Assembly (NCBI GenBank): GCA_019058445.1
Contig: JAHPZA010000010.1
Location: forward strand, 512,001 to 576,000
Length of the DNA: 64,000 bases
Direction: 5' to 3'
Source of the DNA: Promethearchaeota archaeon
GTDB lineage: Archaea; Asgardarchaeota; Lokiarchaeia; Sigyniarchaeales; SOKP01
Positions 50,082 through 57,569 of this stretch are shown in pieces. The notes beneath the pieces are model-generated. The model was not told where the DNA came from. It saw only the letters and a program-made list of their open reading frames with translations, and did not search any database. Every line of letters starts with the position of its first letter. Within the stretch, counting starts at the first letter, position 1. The position numbers and the translations under genes were made by a program.

Positions 50082-51491
50082 ATGCCTTTGGCTGATCTAA
50101 AAACAACATTTTCCATTAAAGAGCTTAGGGGTAGCTCTAGCATTGCTTCTGAAAAGCGTGACTTTATGAGAAAATATTACCCCTCTATACGTCACGATCC
50201 TCATGAAGGCTTTCTTTATGGATTTTTATGCTTAATTTATGACGGAGTAAATAAAATTGAGGATTTGAAAAATAAAATGCGCTTATTTTTCATTTCCGCT
50301 TCAAAACAAGTTGTTGTGGAGGATCAAGACGTCGAAGAGTATTTACAATATGCTAGAAAAAAACAACTGATTAAGGAGGATACTGATGGGACTATATACC
50401 TCACGGAAAATGGTGAAAAATTAGTAGAATTGAGCTATTATTCTACTTTACATGCTTCTTATTGGATGAATTTAATATTTAATGAAAACATTATGCTAAT
50501 AACCACGGCTATTTTTTTAATGATATTAGCATCTATGAAGATATTTGTAGGGATGCAATTAGCATCCCAAGGCATGGTATATGAAGGATTTGAAAATCTA
50601 ACCGATCTACTTAAGGTTGCGATAATTTTTTTGGTTGGATTCAAATTGAAGAGGGATAAAGTCGCTAGTATCATAATTATTGGGATAATGATGTTTACAG
50701 GAGTCATTCTAATATGGTCCGGTATTGAAGCTTTACTGAATCCGACGCCGATTATACCAACAGTTCAGGCGTATATGATCTGTTTTTTTTCCGTTATCCT
50801 GAATTTAGCATTAATGTTTCTGAAAAGCTTGGTTGGCCGTACTTCTGGAAATCTTTCATTACTAAGTGATTCTAAAGACTCTGGTTTAAACGTAAAAATA
50901 TCATTGGGAGTGGCAATCGGTCTTACGTTTGCTATCTTTAGAATTTATTTTGTAGATGCTCTTATAGGCATAATAATAGCAATATTAATTTTTAAGGAAG
51001 GAATTGAAGTTTTAAGGGAATTATTGGGGCCTGAAGAGGATTTTGATATCACCGCAATAAAAGTTTTGGCAGATAATATCTATGATGATCGGCTCACAGG
51101 ATATATCTTAGGAAGTATAAGACGAGAAACATTAACAAAAGAAGATATTCTAAGAAATTTTGAAGAAGGCTTATATTTAGGACGCCTTTATTATGGTGGA
51201 TTTGCAGATTTCTTTTATCATAATTTAGGGGCGGAGATTGCGGAAAAACACTTACATAAATTAATAAAAGGTAAACTGATTGAAACATTAGGTGAATCTA
51301 TTATAATAACTTCAAAAGGGTTACAAACATATTATAGAGCGAAAGCGAAGGAATATAACAATCGCGCTAAAAGAGTTTATGTGGGTCCCCGAGTTCCTCG
51401 TGGTTTGATATATTTCATAGCATTTATAATTGCATTCATATTATTGATAATTTTTGCTAATGATATTAATCAATGGTTAATGAGCTTTTAA
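50082..51491 (+). CDS. Cation diffusion facilitator-like transporter flanked by winged-helix-like domains
   Basis: Central six TM with K..VG...SQG..EGFENLTD and LLSDSKDS; flanks end in YLTENG and IITSKG wing motifs. Confidence 0.65.
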   Translation: MPLADLKTTFSIKELRGSSSIASEKRDFMRKYYPSIRHDPHEGFLYGFLCLIYDGVNKIEDLKNKMRLFFISASKQVVVEDQDVEEYLQYARKKQLIKEDTDGTIYLTENGEKLVELSYYSTLHASYWMNLIFNENIMLITTAIFLMILASMKIFVGMQLASQGMVYEGFENLTDLLKVAIIFLVGFKLKRDKVASIIIIGIMMFTGVILIWSGIEALLNPTPIIPTVQAYMICFFSVILNLALMFLKSLVGRTSGNLSLLSDSKDSGLNVKISLGVAIGLTFAIFRIYFVDALIGIIIAILIFKEGIEVLRELLGPEEDFDITAIKVLADNIYDDRLTGYILGSIRRETLTKEDILRNFEEGLYLGRLYYGGFADFFYHNLGAEIAEKHLHKLIKGKLIETLGESIIITSKGLQTYYRAKAKEYNNRAKRVYVGPRVPRGLIYFIAFIIAFILLIIFANDINQWLMSF

Positions 51492-52716
51492 AGTAATCTG
51501 AATCAAAGTTAGGATATATTTTTTTTCTACGTCCCTCCTTTTTTATGATGACTAATTTAAGATCAATTAACTTCTTTATATGGTAATGAATAGTTTTATG
51601 ATCTACTTTTTTTCTCTTGGTAATTACGCTATTCCAGATACCTGGCTCTTTTTCAATCATTTCTAATATATCTAAGGTTAATTTACTTTTACTTAATTTT
51701 AAGTCTAAATTTGAGATTGGATTTTTTTGATAGTAGGGGAAATATGCAATATAATTTCCGATTCTCTTTTTTCCAATGACCTTATATGTTTCTAAAATAT
51801 CCAGATGCCATACGAGATTTCCTGGTGCGAGTTCTGACTTACGCAGCAACTCATTAAAGTGAATTCCAGGCTCATCTAATATCAGATCAATAATTTTATT
51901 TCTATTTTCATTTTCTAATACCTCTTCTAGGGTTAACCGATGAGCTCCTTTCTGAATTGAGGTAGATCTTGTTCTTAAATATTGAAAATAATCTTTTTTG
52001 GATATAATAACAACAACTGATAAAATAGCGAAAGCAAGAATAATAGAACTGATAATCAAAATGTATGAAAAATAACTTACTTCATAAATAGTAATATAAT
52101 ACTCTGTATCCTTGTCAAGTTCCGATATTGAGCTTTTTAGATAAATTTCTGAATTATCAGATACCTCTTCTGTTTCCAATAATTCCCAAGAATCATCATC
52201 TTCCTCATATAGAGCAATAGAATATTCAGTATATGTATTCAATCCATATTCTGAATCTTTTTTAAAAGTTATTTTTATTTTATCAATTGAACTGTTTGAT
52301 TTTATGCGATAAATGCATCTATATTCAGATCTTAATTGAATTGATCCTTGTTGTGGAGCATTAGGATTTTTTGAGTATCCAAAATTTTCCATACTTCTTT
52401 CAACTTTTATATCAAGTGAGATTGGATTGTCATTTTTTATATCCATGGAAACCTCACGATTTTCAATTCTTTCATTATATTTAATCTTAAGTTCTGTAAA
52501 GACTTCTGTGTCAATTTCAAAATGAATATTGTTCGAGAAATGATAAGAAACGCTTTCATCTCCCTTTATTTCTGTTTTTTTTGAAAATCCTGAAACGTCT
52601 TTATCTTTTTTAGCAATTCCATAAACTATAAATAAATTAAATTCAAGAAGAAAGAAAATTAAAAGTAATAAGGAAAAATTTCGTCTATTTAGTTTATTAA
52701 GAAATTTATATTTCAA
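51466..52716 (-). CDS. Membrane-tethered transcription regulator: signal/TM, beta-rich ectodomain, TM, double winged-helix
   Basis: VLENENR.KI..LI..EPGIHFNEL....LAPG.L.WHL..LE and second EPGI..S.I....DH.TI.YHI.KL. Confidence 0.8.
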   Translation of the reverse strand: MKYKFLNKLNRRNFSLLLLIFFLLEFNLFIVYGIAKKDKDVSGFSKKTEIKGDESVSYHFSNNIHFEIDTEVFTELKIKYNERIENREVSMDIKNDNPISLDIKVERSMENFGYSKNPNAPQQGSIQLRSEYRCIYRIKSNSSIDKIKITFKKDSEYGLNTYTEYSIALYEEDDDSWELLETEEVSDNSEIYLKSSISELDKDTEYYITIYEVSYFSYILIISSIILAFAILSVVVIISKKDYFQYLRTRSTSIQKGAHRLTLEEVLENENRNKIIDLILDEPGIHFNELLRKSELAPGNLVWHLDILETYKVIGKKRIGNYIAYFPYYQKNPISNLDLKLSKSKLTLDILEMIEKEPGIWNSVITKRKKVDHKTIHYHIKKLIDLKLVIIKKEGRRKKIYPNFDSDYFKSSLTID

Positions 52717-52789
52717 ATATTTTCAATCTCATTCGTTTTTCATTGAACATTTTAAAAAAAAAAAATTAAAATTATAATTTTATTATTCT

Positions 52790-53488
52790 TTATTTCCTTC
52801 TCTTTATAAATAATATTGCGATTCCTGCTAGAACTATTGCTCCGATTATAGATCCAATAATTAATAATAGAGTATAGTCAAATTCTGGTACTAATATTGT
52901 CCATGTCGAAAAGTGATCTGTTTCACATTCTAAATATCCATTTTTAGATGTGGTTTCAACGGTAACCCATTCTTCATTTTTCTTATCATAATAAGCCCAT
53001 GTGCCTCCTCTGTTTTCTTCATTTTCCTCTATTCTAAGCTTTGCTTCAATATCATCTTCACTAGAATCTATATCTACTACAAATCCTTCTTGATATCTAT
53101 ATCGATTTCGATTTCTTGCTGTATAAATGTTTCCTTTTTGAAGCCCAATACTATTCTGCTCTTCTCTACATTTCATTGTTAAATTTAGTTTATCATCTGA
53201 TTCTATTTCGATTTCAAAATCTTTATCCCCAATTTTTTTAGCATCACAATCAATAGAACAATTAGCTTTTTCATTACTTTCTACTGTTATTCTCGTTCTC
53301 TCCCTAAATCGAAATCTTACTCGTTCATTAGCACGAAGTTGTTCTTGAACATGATCGCTATCATCAATGTTGATTTTTTCATCATCACTAGCAGCATTGA
53401 CGGGAGTAGAGTTGTAGACCATAATCATTGAAAAGAGCATTGATAAAACCAAGAAAGAAAACACGATTTTTTTAGAATTTTTTTTCAT
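52790..53488 (-). CDS. Single-pass surface protein with juxtamembrane HFS motif
   Basis: Signal peptide (MKKNSKK..VNA), beta-rich domain, WAYYD...EW..V.T...GYLECETDHFSTWTIL, C-terminal TM + KRRK. Confidence 0.8.
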   Translation of the reverse strand: MKKNSKKIVFSFLVLSMLFSMIMVYNSTPVNAASDDEKINIDDSDHVQEQLRANERVRFRFRERTRITVESNEKANCSIDCDAKKIGDKDFEIEIESDDKLNLTMKCREEQNSIGLQKGNIYTARNRNRYRYQEGFVVDIDSSEDDIEAKLRIEENEENRGGTWAYYDKKNEEWVTVETTSKNGYLECETDHFSTWTILVPEFDYTLLLIIGSIIGAIVLAGIAILFIKRRK

Positions 53489-53724: not shown

Positions 53725-55149
53725 ATGACAGAAAAGAATTCTAATTTTCATGATAGCATACCCCAAAAAGAACTAAGAATATTATCGACAAGCAAAGCAA
53801 TAATTTATACATTACCAAATATGGGCTTAACTGCATTGTTGGCAATAATTGTATTCTTTACGTTTTTATTTTACATTAATATCATGGGGCAGCCTCCATT
53901 AATCATTGGTGCTATTTTTTCTGCCACTATCTTCGTTTATGCTGTATTCTGTCCGATTTGGGGGGTAGTAGCTGATAAAATAGGAAAGAAAAAGTTACTC
54001 TTATTTTCAGGTCCTATCCTTGCCATAAGTTTTATTTTCATTTGGACTCCGCCTATCCCTACTGGCGCATATGGTGAACTGTATTTACCTCTTATACTCT
54101 GGTTGATATTCTTTGGTTTCACATTTAGAATAATGATCGCGGCATTTCAACCAATAATTTATTCTTTACTTCCAGAATTGAGCACAGAAGAGCAGAACCG
54201 AGTCAAGATCTCAATGATAAATATGATAATGATCATTATAGGAACTGTTATAGGAACGATTGGACCTATAATTTTAATGGGAGATGTTACTAAAAATCTT
54301 TCAAGAGAAGACCCTAAACTTTATTATCCTATTTCCTTAATTGGTAAGATAATATTTACTCAAATATTCTTCTTCGCAACATTAATAAGTATAATATTTT
54401 GTATTTGTCTTATTTTAATGCTATTATTCATAAAAGAGCCCCCCAAACAAACAGTTACGAAGCTTTCATTTAAAGAAATGGTTAATGATTTACTAGGTCC
54501 GTTTAAGGATAAAAATTACGGATTATTTTTGATTGTATTTTATTTATTTTGGATCCCTTTAGTGTCCTTTCAATTTTTAGTTTTAAATTTAGCCACATTT
54601 GTAATCTCCATGAGAGGAAATGAATTTATATTAATGGCTATAGTGGTAATCATGTTTGCAGCAGTGTCATTTATAGCATGGAAGAATCTCTCTGAAAAAT
54701 ATGGTTTGAAAGAAACACTTTCAATTTGTCTTATTTTCTCGATATTTTCTTTTATACTTTTTTCGTTATTGCTAGTACCTATGCCAGGTGAAGTGGGTAT
54801 AATTGTAGGGATTTTATTAATTTCACTAAGTTTTTGCAGTTCTGTAGGAATAATGGTATTTCCTTTTGCAATAATGAGTGATCTTATTGATAACGCCGAA
54901 ATAAAAACAGGAAAAAATTTAAGCGGATCCTATTCAGGTGCTTTTATCATGATGGGATCTTTAGCCTCTGCAAGCTCAGTGTTAATTATTTCAGTAAATC
55001 TCGAATTATATGGACCAGAAGCTGCACTTGGATATATTATAATTTTGTCTATTATTGGTCCCATCCTATTATTTGCCGCTTTACTAATTTTTCAAAAAGT
55101 TCAGGTTAAAGGCACACGTAAATTAGTAAAAAAATCAAATGAATACTAA
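53725..55149 (+). CDS. MFS transporter, GPH/MelB-like
   Basis: About 12 TM; G..ADK.GKK, SLLPELS...R, MSDLID..E.KTG....G.Y.G. Confidence 0.88.
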   Translation: MTEKNSNFHDSIPQKELRILSTSKAIIYTLPNMGLTALLAIIVFFTFLFYINIMGQPPLIIGAIFSATIFVYAVFCPIWGVVADKIGKKKLLLFSGPILAISFIFIWTPPIPTGAYGELYLPLILWLIFFGFTFRIMIAAFQPIIYSLLPELSTEEQNRVKISMINMIMIIIGTVIGTIGPIILMGDVTKNLSREDPKLYYPISLIGKIIFTQIFFFATLISIIFCICLILMLLFIKEPPKQTVTKLSFKEMVNDLLGPFKDKNYGLFLIVFYLFWIPLVSFQFLVLNLATFVISMRGNEFILMAIVVIMFAAVSFIAWKNLSEKYGLKETLSICLIFSIFSFILFSLLLVPMPGEVGIIVGILLISLSFCSSVGIMVFPFAIMSDLIDNAEIKTGKNLSGSYSGAFIMMGSLASASSVLIISVNLELYGPEAALGYIIILSIIGPILLFAALLIFQKVQVKGTRKLVKKSNEY

Positions 55150-55313: not shown

Positions 55314-57569
55314 ATGTCATTAAAAGAATTCACCAAAGAAGTTTTCACTCGCTATGGCTTAACTGAAGATGATATAAAAGTTTATCTAATGTATTTAAGA
55401 ACTCCTAGAGCGACAATTTCTGAAGCGTATCTCTCGTTTGACGAAGGTGAAATTGAATATACTAGAGTAGAAGAAATAACTAATATGTTAGTAGAGAAAA
55501 ATTTCTTGAAACAGATAGAAGGTATTGTTAATAGATACTTACCTCTAGAACCTTATTTTGAATTATTTACTAACGAGTCAGAATTATTTAGAAATGAAAT
55601 TGCGAAAATTAAGGATAATGTTCTTGCTGATCAATCCAATAGATTTGATAAGCTCGAAGCAATTCAGAATAAAACTATTGAAGAAGTTGAGAATGCCGTT
55701 AGTTCTCAAGTTAAAGAGTTCTTCGAAGATTCTGACAGTAAAAATCAAAGTAAAAAGGAAAGAATTGATAGTGCAACTGCTCGATTTACTGAGACTTCTA
55801 AAGCATTGGAAGCAAATCTTCATAGTATAAATGACAATTTAAATGCAGAGCTAAAAAAAATCTCTCAATCATTTGTAAGCGATAATGAAACTGAAATAAA
55901 TCGGGCAAAGGATGATCTAACGAAATTAATTGCAGAGTTATTGAGTGATTTTTCTAATAGAATAAATGATTTAGAAAAAGAATTGAAAAAAGATTTAGAT
56001 GGTCATGTAGATAGACATCAAACTATCTCAAATGAACTTAAACCAAAAATGGAGCAGATTCTTGAGAAATACCTTGAACGTATGGATAAAGTTATTACCG
56101 ATCTTAAGAAAAGAATTTCGAATTTGCTTACTGAGCACACAAGTCATGTGAAAAGTACGACAGGTAAAGTTGAATCAGATATTCACATACAAGTGGATGA
56201 TAGGCATTTAAAGTTAAGAGAGCAGGTAAATACTTACCGAGATAGAGCATTAACGCTACTTGAGAATTTATTGAGCACATCCAATATGTTTAGCAACTTT
56301 TCCGAAGAAATGGCAAACCAAGGGATATTCTTTTTCAAAGGAAAGAGACAAAAATATGTTGACAGATGGAATCGAATAGAAAAAGAAGTTGCCTCAATAT
56401 CAACACCATTTAAAGATGATTATATTAATGATTGTAATGAATATATTAGAACTACACAAACTACCGTAGATGATTTAAAAACAGATATTACTAATGTTAT
56501 GGCAAAGGAAAATAGTTCACTTGCCACTGAAACTACAGATCTTGATAAAAAGGCACAGGACGAGATTAGCGCAGAATTAGAAGCGTTAGCAACAGATATG
56601 GCAGGTGAAATCGACAACACCTTACAAGGTGGAGTTAAAGATTGTAGTGATACCTCAATAAAATTAAAAGATTCTTTAGAAAATTCCTTAAAACAACATA
56701 ATAGACAATATGATGAGGCAATTAATAGACACAAGGATGACTCGTTAAAATCTTATGATAATTTCGATGGAGAAATTAAAACGAAGAATCAAAATTGGAC
56801 AAGCAATGTCGATGGCAAATTTTCTGAAGGAAAACAAGATAGTTCTGAAAAAATCGATGCTGAAATTACTCTTTGGAATGAAGAATCAGCGGATATGAAC
56901 CAGATGCTAGCAAACATGCTTGAAGATCATAAGAATAAATATAAAACTAATGCTGAAACCCTTCAAAATAGTTTATCAACTACTACTCGGGATAATATTC
57001 AAAACATAAAAGATGCAATTGCCGATTTCACCCTTCAATTTATGAACTCAATTGATGATTCGACGGAATTAGCTGAAACAAACGAAGATAAATTGAAAGA
57101 TATCCATACAGCTTCCAGTGCAATCCCTGAAATTAGTCAAGTCACAACATGGCACACGATAGGGCGAGATGCATTAATTGCCGCAATAAAAGACGCAATA
57201 TACAGAACAAAATCATCAGTTATAATAGTTACCCCCGTTGTAATACCAGAAATTTTGCAGATTTTATCTGAGTTCGCTTACCAAAGAAAAGCTGCTCGAT
57301 TCATGCTCACGAGTCACTGGGATATGCAAGCCTATGGTGATATCGTTAAAAAAATGATGCAATTAGGGAATATACAATTCCGCAATCTGACGTCTGCGGG
57401 AGAATATTTTGCACTTACACGTGACGCCGAGGAAGTCGTTCTTGCACCATATTCAGATAAAGACGCAGAGATTATTAGCATTGTAAGTAATCATCCTGCT
57501 TATGCAAGGTTATACAGTCAATTTATAGGGCCGATTTTTCAAGCGAATAGTCGCCCAATAAAGCTTTAG
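55314..57569 (+). CDS. TrmB-like wHTH + long helical/coiled-coil region + PLD-like C-terminal domain
   Basis: GLTEDDIKVYL..L...AT..E, L.EK.F, RY.PLEP; C-terminal G..A....I...I.RTKSSVIIVTP and RDAEEVVLAP. Confidence 0.7.
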   Translation: MSLKEFTKEVFTRYGLTEDDIKVYLMYLRTPRATISEAYLSFDEGEIEYTRVEEITNMLVEKNFLKQIEGIVNRYLPLEPYFELFTNESELFRNEIAKIKDNVLADQSNRFDKLEAIQNKTIEEVENAVSSQVKEFFEDSDSKNQSKKERIDSATARFTETSKALEANLHSINDNLNAELKKISQSFVSDNETEINRAKDDLTKLIAELLSDFSNRINDLEKELKKDLDGHVDRHQTISNELKPKMEQILEKYLERMDKVITDLKKRISNLLTEHTSHVKSTTGKVESDIHIQVDDRHLKLREQVNTYRDRALTLLENLLSTSNMFSNFSEEMANQGIFFFKGKRQKYVDRWNRIEKEVASISTPFKDDYINDCNEYIRTTQTTVDDLKTDITNVMAKENSSLATETTDLDKKAQDEISAELEALATDMAGEIDNTLQGGVKDCSDTSIKLKDSLENSLKQHNRQYDEAINRHKDDSLKSYDNFDGEIKTKNQNWTSNVDGKFSEGKQDSSEKIDAEITLWNEESADMNQMLANMLEDHKNKYKTNAETLQNSLSTTTRDNIQNIKDAIADFTLQFMNSIDDSTELAETNEDKLKDIHTASSAIPEISQVTTWHTIGRDALIAAIKDAIYRTKSSVIIVTPVVIPEILQILSEFAYQRKAARFMLTSHWDMQAYGDIVKKMMQLGNIQFRNLTSAGEYFALTRDAEEVVLAPYSDKDAEIISIVSNHPAYARLYSQFIGPIFQANSRPIKL

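Follow-up and report, generated by a model that had tools for sequence, protein, structure and literature searches.

What could a surface domain that is predicted to cleave its own backbone be doing next to a transcription factor held in the same membrane? The question is raised by a pair of adjacent genes in a Promethearchaeota archaeon (GenBank assembly GCA_019058445.1; 4.6 Mb, 92.6% complete), which we analyzed in a window of 64,000 nucleotides from contig JAHPZA010000010.1 (positions 512,001 to 576,000). Gene A encodes a membrane-anchored surface protein with a His-Phe-Ser (HFS) motif. Gene B lies downstream of it in the same orientation and encodes a protein with a related ectodomain, a transmembrane (TM) helix and two winged helix-turn-helix (wHTH) domains. 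A preliminary description of the sequence had proposed that the two co-oriented genes, 73 bp apart, form an Asgard archaeal receptor pair in which a self-cleaving subunit controls a membrane-tethered regulator. Both open reading frames (ORFs) and the spacer between them were recovered as described, and the Asgard assignment holds, since the named homologs of A and B, listed as Promethearchaeota, Lokiarchaeota, Hermodarchaeota and Thorarchaeota, are all Promethearchaeota (Asgard). The analysis suggested that A belongs to the Microbial Autoproteolysis INducing (MAIN) domain proteins and that B is a pseudo-MAIN regulator, and we lean slightly towards the reading in which the two make up one sensor-output unit, composed of a cleaving MAIN chain and a tethered wHTH regulator.

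Gene A and the MAIN family

The start codon of A was placed at the ATG at 53488, in agreement with the N-termini of its homologs. The predicted signal peptide is basic at its N-terminus, with a hydrophobic helix at residues 5-25 and a putative A-x-A-type cleavage site. Between it and the TM helix, the AlphaFold 2 (AF2) model contains an all-beta ectodomain of about 170-172 residues. A has a predicted N-terminal signal sequence and is anchored at the surface, C-terminal to the domain, by a TM helix with a basic tail; the family consensus of the helix reads IIGxGIGAAVL, and the tail comprises 3-7 residues in most members. As had been noted earlier, the HFS motif stands just before the TM helix of a protein that has no cytoplasmic domain. 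The sequence around the motif reads LECETD-HFS-TWTILVPE, followed by the TM helix and KRRK. DSSP assignment of the model placed HFS in the turn joining the last two strands (residues 185-190 and 195-201), which is the geometry of a GPS site. After cleavage, the modelled strand STWTILVPE would remain on the membrane fragment as the equivalent of the tethered peptide. An archaeosortase signal was considered for the V-P-E-F stretch and the TM tail and was dropped, as A matched no NCBIfam CTERM model despite V-P-E-F before the TM helix.

The AF2 models of A and B reached pLDDT values of 83.6 and 84.8, respectively, and both exceeded 90 in the sandwich. The GAIN domains of CD97, BAI3 and BAI2 headed the Foldseek matches of A with probabilities of 0.90-0.98, followed by ankyrin ZU5, NLRP1 FIIND and the GAIN domain of CELSR1; E-values throughout were weak (8.5e-3 and above). 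VIA-align, an exhaustive structural aligner independent of Foldseek, was run against 48,161 chains and ranked BAI3 GAIN first (Z 6.9, root-mean-square deviation 4.1, 132 aa), followed by CELSR1 (6.8), CD97 (6.6 and 6.2), CARD8 FIIND (5.8) and ankyrin ZU5 (5.5-5.8). The GAIN/ZU5-like fold suspected beforehand was therefore found by both programs, with GAIN-B, ZU5 and FIIND as the best matches of A. The alignments with chains that end at a cleavage site extend up to F193 of the model, namely those with NLRP1 (6x6c_E, ending at residue 1212), GPR56 (5kvm_A, ending at 382), GPR110 (ending at 566) and GPR97 (ending at 249). The cleavage sites given in the literature are F1212/S1213 for NLRP1 and H381-L382/T383 for GPR56. 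The earlier recognition of HFS as a known type of autoproteolysis site is borne out by this register, in which F193 corresponds to F1212 of NLRP1 and L382 of GPR56. In searches with the Pfam models GPS, GAIN and ZU5, neither A nor 32 family members gave a match at E-values up to 1, and a family-profile sequence search of the PDB returned only chance-level picornavirus VP2 rows.

The closest relatives were revealed by sequence profiles. A has 96 homologs, all of them Asgard where named. When a profile of the A ectodomain (A5) was searched against 1.8 billion representative proteins, 149 proteins matched. Most are of Asgard type and consist of one domain preceded by a signal peptide and followed by a TM helix with a short basic tail. 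Bacterial SLH proteins that carry VEVDHFTKFAV repeats were among the matches too, such as P0245 (E 2.1e-6 with the A5 profile). Residues 880-1300 of P0245 matched positions 1256-1351 of the NCBIfam YfkN-type nucleotidase model NF006937 (E 5.7e-16), and A itself matched positions 1242-1331 of that model (E 0.007); the homology with YfkN is transitive and rests on the NCBIfam model. P0278 matched the group B streptococcal IgA-binding protein BAC (E 1e-3). The MAIN domain was defined in a recent preprint (Brogan & Rudner, bioRxiv 10.64898/2026.05.12.724683, May 2026), in which HF/S cleavage of Bacillus subtilis YfkN was established by Edman degradation, was abolished by S1346A and left the fragments associated. 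According to the same preprint, nearly all bacterial MAIN domains tested were cleaved, the IgA Fc receptor of Streptococcus agalactiae is counted among the MAIN proteins, and the role of the domain is the release of surface cargo, with no signalling associated. In its text and in the portions of its supplements covered here, Asgard archaea, PF13412 and PF24266 do not occur, and the structure-based annotation contained there labels MAIN domains as ZU5.

Because the A profile reaches bacterial repeats that match the C-terminus of YfkN, which cleaves at HF/S, A was assigned to this family: judged from these sequence relationships, it is a minimal archaeal MAIN protein and the prokaryotic counterpart of GAIN-B. 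The kinship with GAIN and ZU5 put forward earlier could thus be refined, the closest family being MAIN, for which HF/S cleavage is experimental in YfkN.

Conservation of the motif is consistent with this assignment. H192, F193 and S194 are invariant in a 32-sequence alignment (A3). In a 30-sequence alignment (A1), no variation was seen at S194, and conservation at H192 and F193 was at least 90%. The adjacent W196 and T197 are invariant in the A alignment as well. Among the three motif residues, the serine varies least, and the sole alignment variants, P0089 and P0096, read V-L-S (NVLSTWT where others have DHFSTWT). Conservation across the 149 profile matches is highest in T-x-H-[FL]-S-x-W-T, including in each unit of the tandem arrays described below. 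H-x-S is present in 70 of the 73 A orthologs of species representatives, so that the conservation of HFS in other Asgard genomes, raised as a check by the preliminary description, proved nearly complete across the family. Given its homology to experimentally tested MAIN domains, A is expected with considerable confidence to cleave itself between F193 and S194.

Two kinds of A-like paralogs were also observed. P0141, P0191, P0209, P0215 and P0225 contain arrays of 2-3 MAIN-like domains, each with its own HFS, and some have PGF-like C-terminal tails. If every unit cleaves, such an array would consist of several non-covalently held pieces. These arrays may be what NCBIfam terms the PGF-pre-PGF domain, to whose model, TIGR04213, a weak match alone was obtained, with residues 138-197 of B (E 0.32). 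The other kind, represented by P0075, P0083, P0089, P0091 and P0096 (e.g. G176:C18:65491-65838), carries a CxCxC-rich insert and does not lie beside B. The insert, made of CDCECKCDPEC repeats and up to about 140 residues long, sits between the sandwich halves.

Gene B and its pairing with gene A

The start codon of B is TTG, the same as in its orthologs. The two tandem wHTH domains that had been read from the sequence behind the TM helix both matched Pfam families above their cut-offs: the first matched PF24266 (E 6.7e-16, 58.6 bits against a cut-off of 31), and the second matched PF13412 (E 4.5e-9, 36.2 bits against 21.9). The first wHTH also matched the ArsR/SmtB model NF033788 (E 2.5e-7), with 30.4 bits below the NCBIfam cut-off of 55, and PDB entry 5duk (E 6.5e-4). 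Just behind the TM helix, K240, Y246 and L247 are invariant in the B alignment.

The 180-residue ectodomain of B resembles that of A in fold. VIA-align scored it highest with BAI3 GAIN (Z 6.3) and gave ankyrin ZU5 a Z of 5.8; in Foldseek, sandwich domains of the dextranase type came first, GAIN being on top only with the exhaustive aligner. The alignments of B to cleaved GAIN N-terminal fragments stop at residue 200. The turn equivalent to the cleavage site of A is E199-L200-D201 by structure and D-T-E by MAFFT, which paired TDHFSTWT with DTEYY. The fate of the motif is complementary in the two genes: H-x-S/T was found at the equivalent site in 0/80 B orthologs, as against H-x-S in 70/73 A orthologs.

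The ectodomains of A and B had been aligned by eye in the preliminary description. In a pairwise BLASTP comparison, the two proteins aligned weakly over 194 collinear residues spanning ectodomain and TM helix (E 0.099, 20% identity), and the alignment became significant when family profiles were compared (hhalign probability 98.1%, E 8.7e-14, 174 columns). The A model also matched ESM-Atlas clusters of wHTH-bearing Asgard proteins (TM 0.70). The by-eye alignment was right, because the profile alignment is significant and the Atlas models match, and the profile comparison supports the view that the two ectodomains are paralogs. Since B has its fold and ancestry in common with A and the catalytic motif is absent, B is a pseudo-MAIN membrane-tethered regulator.

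Of 134 genomes of the same family, 129 contain full-length B, as do all 18 genomes from two more families within the order; beyond the order, matches were limited to the wHTH part of B. The order-level distribution of A is the same. In 27/27 testable loci of the family, B is immediately preceded by a co-oriented A, and the same placement was seen in 9/12 loci in the other families. Among 80 GTDB species representatives, the arrangement was kept in 73 of the 76 testable loci (a count that includes L116 and L132), by which the conservation of gene order across an order of Asgard archaea was verified. In one locus (L039 1870-4836, G143), two tandem copies of A, both with HFS, stand ahead of one B.

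Single-chain forms were also identified. The proteins P0040, P0041 and P0043 are 63% identical to A through the ectodomain and HFS into the TM helix, and from SKRDYF onward about 85% identical (by eye) to the cytoplasmic part of B, with the crossover inside the homologous TM helices. The fused-form gene stands alone on its contig, with neither A nor B adjoining. A distant version of the pair was found on a contig of 61% GC, where an A-like gene (NHFSTYAIL) is followed by one for a 481-aa regulator, P0201, whose ectodomain retains TSHFSTFTLL; no close relative of P0201 was found in the genome contig collection or in a set of 5.8 billion proteins. As P0201 keeps HFS beside an HFS-bearing A-like gene, the ancestral pair probably had two active domains.

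The same module of TM helix and double wHTH also occurs on other ectodomains in the order, in ORFs of 306-854 aa. In six loci (L036 2591-4126, L037 7555-9105, L041 2864-5206, L047 2920-5481, L049 3565-5421 and L050 874-2979), a B-type output module (E 1e-60 to 4e-81) is joined to a larger, unrelated ectodomain dissimilar to those of A and B, in ORFs of 512-854 aa. Within this Asgard order, membrane-tethered regulators of the wHTH kind thus make up a broader family.

The spacer between A and B is conserved in one feature. A run of at least 8 T (8-12) occurs within 70 nt past the A stop codon in 106/110 related loci, not all of which are independent, compared with 11/550 (2%) windows of 70 nt drawn at random from these loci. 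In archaea, oligo-T tracts serve as termination signals. The T-run is probably an oligo-T terminator or attenuator setting the ratio of A to B, and because of this conserved tract A and B may be separately transcribed or unequal in level.

Proposed mechanism, alternatives and neighbouring genes

Taken together, we consider a functional coupling of A and B probable. In the mechanism that we propose, A would be secreted, held by its C-terminal TM helix and constitutively cut at F193/S194, and its N-terminal fragment of about 160 residues would stay non-covalently on the STWTILV strand of the TM stub. A would serve as a labile "cleave-and-hold" element, and B, as a paralog that lost the H-x-S triad, would now act as a membrane-tethered one-component transcription factor. 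The two chains may associate through their homologous ectodomains and TM parts. Loss of the A fragment through force, ligand or envelope damage would then be read out by B, either because it exposes B to proteolysis and intramembrane release or because it alters DNA binding by B; release by intramembrane proteolysis and DNA binding at the membrane appear about equally probable. For the single-chain forms, the simplest reading, after RsgI/SEAL and Notch, is that loss of the N-fragment would leave a stub of about 13 residues, which would suit intramembrane proteolysis and free the wHTH part. S2P-type intramembrane proteases are encoded in the genome. Since A lacks a cargo, its function must reside in the domain itself. 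The broader idea, that MAIN domains are wired to a transmembrane transcription output, usually in two-chain and rarely in fused form, such that fragment shedding regulates genes, most simply through intramembrane release of the wHTH part, and the domain acquires its first signalling role, is put forward tentatively, at somewhat short of an even chance.

The points that weigh against this model are best considered together with the alternatives. A and B might work independently, with A shedding its own ectodomain, for example as a coat or adhesin, and B sensing a ligand of its own by means of a catalytically dead copy of the fold; their adjacency would then reflect tandem duplication, perhaps with shared regulation. 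The oligo-T tract fits such independence, since it hints at separate or attenuated transcripts more than at a tight operon. Genes of the A type are found apart from B as well (the tandem and Cys-rich paralogs, and G138), and the TM and wHTH output of B also occurs on unrelated larger ectodomains without an A partner. The two genes are unlinked in G138 and G280, as is the second B copy in G132, and their adjacency elsewhere could partly be a relic of the tandem duplication. Moreover, the role published for MAIN lies in release and not in signalling, and A is devoid of a passenger domain, so that the cargo-release role is no direct guide to its function. Prediction of a complex between the B ectodomain (36-216) and the A ectodomain scored 0.00 in both runs, which were made without controls and count neither way. 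Independence is nevertheless unlikely in our view, because the same gene order and orientation are kept in 73/76 species and in the distant GC-rich lineage, the fusions place the A ectodomain on the B output domain, and the fates of the H-x-S motif are strictly complementary, with retention by A and loss from B. The absence of any cargo that A could release also argues against it.

Alternatively, HFS could be merely structural and A an uncleaved, ToxS/TcpH-like accessory that stabilizes the B ectodomain or sets its oligomeric state. Cleavage fails in some eukaryotic GAIN domains that contain the motif, and ankyrin ZU5 has the same fold without cleavage. In a small clade of A orthologs (L029, L058, L119 and L126), the motif His is replaced by Glu or Asp (ETSEFSYWT, ETSDFSYWT), with the Ser, the rest of the protein and the adjacent B kept; these proteins may not cleave or may rely on a different catalytic base. 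The structural evidence has its own limits. The Z-scores are middling (<8) and, according to the warning of the tool, may reflect a common beta-sandwich arrangement, and for A and B alike, GAIN is closely followed by sandwich domains of dextranase and other glycosidases. The middling values gain weight, as the alignments end at F193, the known scissile P1 position. Against a non-cleaving A stand the conservation of H192 and F193 (at least 90%) and the invariance of S194 over deep divergence and in every tandem unit, together with the cleavage of nearly all bacterial MAIN domains tested, and we rate this possibility a little below that of independent action. That the pair is a surface metal sensor seems very improbable. 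This idea was suggested by the resemblance of the first wHTH to ArsR/SmtB (NF033788), by the Cation_efflux gene converging on B and by the CxCxC repeat inserts of some A-like paralogs. However, only 4 related loci have the CDF gene beside B, the Cys-rich paralogs show no linkage with B while A and B themselves have no such inserts, and the ArsR match is below the family cut-off and concerns a cytoplasmic domain. The idea of a metal sensor was set aside, since neither of these features, the CDF gene or the Cys-rich inserts, accompanies the A-B pair across genomes. Coupling of A and B through a cleaved surface domain is the reading that we slightly favour.

The features of the locus are listed in Table 1. 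The TrmB-like protein encoded beyond A contains a coiled coil of about 500 residues. Its gene is a conserved neighbour of A in other genera: in 15 related loci, tblastn placed it directly upstream of A in divergent orientation, and it also adjoins the fused-form gene in L054 (tblastn). It is a possible target or partner of regulator B. On the other side, the CDF-type gene overlaps the 3' end of B by 26 nt, and this neighbourhood is kept in only the 4 related loci mentioned above. A scan for sigma-70 promoters and hairpin terminators was uninformative for this AT-rich archaeon. Weak matches within the same genome on contig C4 (L002 and L003) found no support from family hidden Markov models.

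Table 1. Features of the A-B locus and of the neighbouring genes, with positions in the window.
Feature	Positions	Strand	Basis or remark
Gene A, MAIN (GAIN-B-like) protein, 232 aa	52790-53488	minus	ORF and translation, homologs
A residues 1-32, putative signal peptide ending with VNA/AS cut	53393-53488	minus	Predicted from sequence
A residues 33-204, MAIN/GAIN-B-like beta-sandwich ectodomain	52877-53392	minus	AF2 model, structure searches, family profile
A H192-F193-S194, predicted cis-autoproteolysis site, scissile bond F193/S194	52907-52915	minus	Register and conservation
A residues 194-202, STWTILVPE, last beta-strand	52883-52909	minus	DSSP strand 195-201
A residues 205-232, TM helix with conserved small-residue (G/A) pattern, then KRRK tail	52793-52876	minus	Model helix 205-231
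A-B spacer, 73 bp with T12 run	52717-52789	minus	Putative archaeal oligo-T terminator/attenuator
Gene B, pseudo-MAIN ectodomain, TM helix and tandem wHTH regulator, 416 aa	51466-52716	minus	
B residues 1-36, N-terminal hydrophobic segment, signal peptide (YGIA/KK cut) or signal anchor	52609-52716	minus	Model helix 11-35, sequence
B residues 37-215, ectodomain homologous to A, same fold, without H-x-S/T	52072-52608	minus	hhalign, AF2, VIA-align
B residues 199-204, ELDKDT, turn equivalent to the DHFS turn of A, without catalytic motif	52105-52122	minus	Structure alignment
B residues 216-240, TM helix, then invariant SKKDYxxYL	51997-52071	minus	Model helix 216-241
B residues 269-328, first wHTH (HTH_HVO_0163_N, ArsR-like)	51733-51912	minus	PF24266
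B residues 345-386, second wHTH (HTH_24, MarR-like)	51559-51684	minus	PF13412
Cation_efflux (CDF)-type membrane protein with N-terminal wHTH	50082-51491	plus	Converges on B
MFS transporter gene	53725-55149		Inserted between A and the TrmB-like gene in the genus of the source
TrmB-like coiled-coil gene	55314-57569	plus	Pfam TrmB at N-terminus

Comparison with known systems

The A-B locus could be the first link of a MAIN domain to transmembrane signalling. What is new here is the pairing of MAIN with a membrane-tethered regulator, as a widely conserved candidate for transmembrane signalling by this domain. Together with its relatives, the locus offers a natural dissection, with one chain that is predicted to cleave, a regulator chain without the cleavage motif and forms in which the two are fused, and the 172-residue ectodomain of A is small enough for direct testing.

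Like the known MAIN proteins YfkN and IgA Fc receptor, A has a GAIN-B-like sandwich with H-F-S in the turn before the last strand, a signal peptide, a C-terminal surface anchor and a profile link to the C-terminus of YfkN. Unlike them, its domain makes up the whole ectodomain, without an enzymatic or adhesion passenger, is anchored by a TM helix instead of a sortase or SLH anchor, and is paired with, or rarely fused to, a TM-linked transcription factor. The cytoplasmic part of B is a member of the HVO_0163-type (PF24266) and HTH_24 archaeal regulators, which differ from it in that the B part is tethered via a TM helix to a GAIN-like ectodomain.

Membrane-bound regulators of the ToxR/ToxS, TcpP/TcpH and CadC type are single-pass proteins with a cytoplasmic DNA-binding domain and a small accessory membrane protein encoded next to them. 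The comparison with ToxR/ToxS drawn in the preliminary description holds as an analogy only and does not extend to membership: the wHTH of B is C-terminal and of the HVO_0163/MarR type, whereas that of ToxR is N-terminal and OmpR-type, so that the topology is opposite and there is no homology, and the ToxS and TcpH accessories are neither paralogs of the sensor domain of their regulator nor autoproteolytic, unlike the predicted MAIN protein A.

Closer parallels were found among self-cleaving domains. GAIN domains are a hallmark of animal adhesion GPCRs. With the GAIN/GPS domains of these receptors and of polycystin-1, A has in common the fold of subdomain B, the register of the scissile site (F193 = GPR56 L382), the hydrophobic strand after the cut just outside the membrane and a presumed cleave-and-hold logic. 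It differs from them in lacking the helical GAIN-A subdomain and the 7TM or 11TM body, having a single TM helix instead; the Cys pattern of GPS is largely absent, and the output proposed here runs through a wHTH regulator on a paralogous chain instead of a G protein. The likeness to Notch and adhesion GPCR signalling suggested earlier is an analogy without membership. ZU5 and FIIND domains (PIDD, NLRP1, CARD8, UNC5CL) and Nup98 likewise have an HF/S or SF/S cut ending a ZU5-type sandwich; in contrast to A, the ZU5/FIIND domains are cytoplasmic, eukaryotic and followed by UPA and death-fold domains.

As summarized in the discussion of the MAIN preprint (bioRxiv 10.64898/2026.05.12.724683), SEAL-domain RsgI anti-sigma factors undergo autoproteolysis, force-driven dissociation and intramembrane proteolysis. 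Like the fused forms reported here, in which cleavage is predicted, they combine an extracytoplasmic self-cleaving domain, a single TM helix and a cytoplasmic transcription output, and among the known systems they provide the best model for how fusions with HFS could work. They differ in their SEA-like fold and sigma/anti-sigma output, and the cleaving domain and the output are mostly placed on two paralogous chains in the Asgard system. The locus bears on a pre-eukaryotic origin of cleave-and-hold mechanosensing: if the proposed mechanism is true, the receptor logic of adhesion GPCRs, Notch and RsgI would also operate in close archaeal relatives of eukaryotes.

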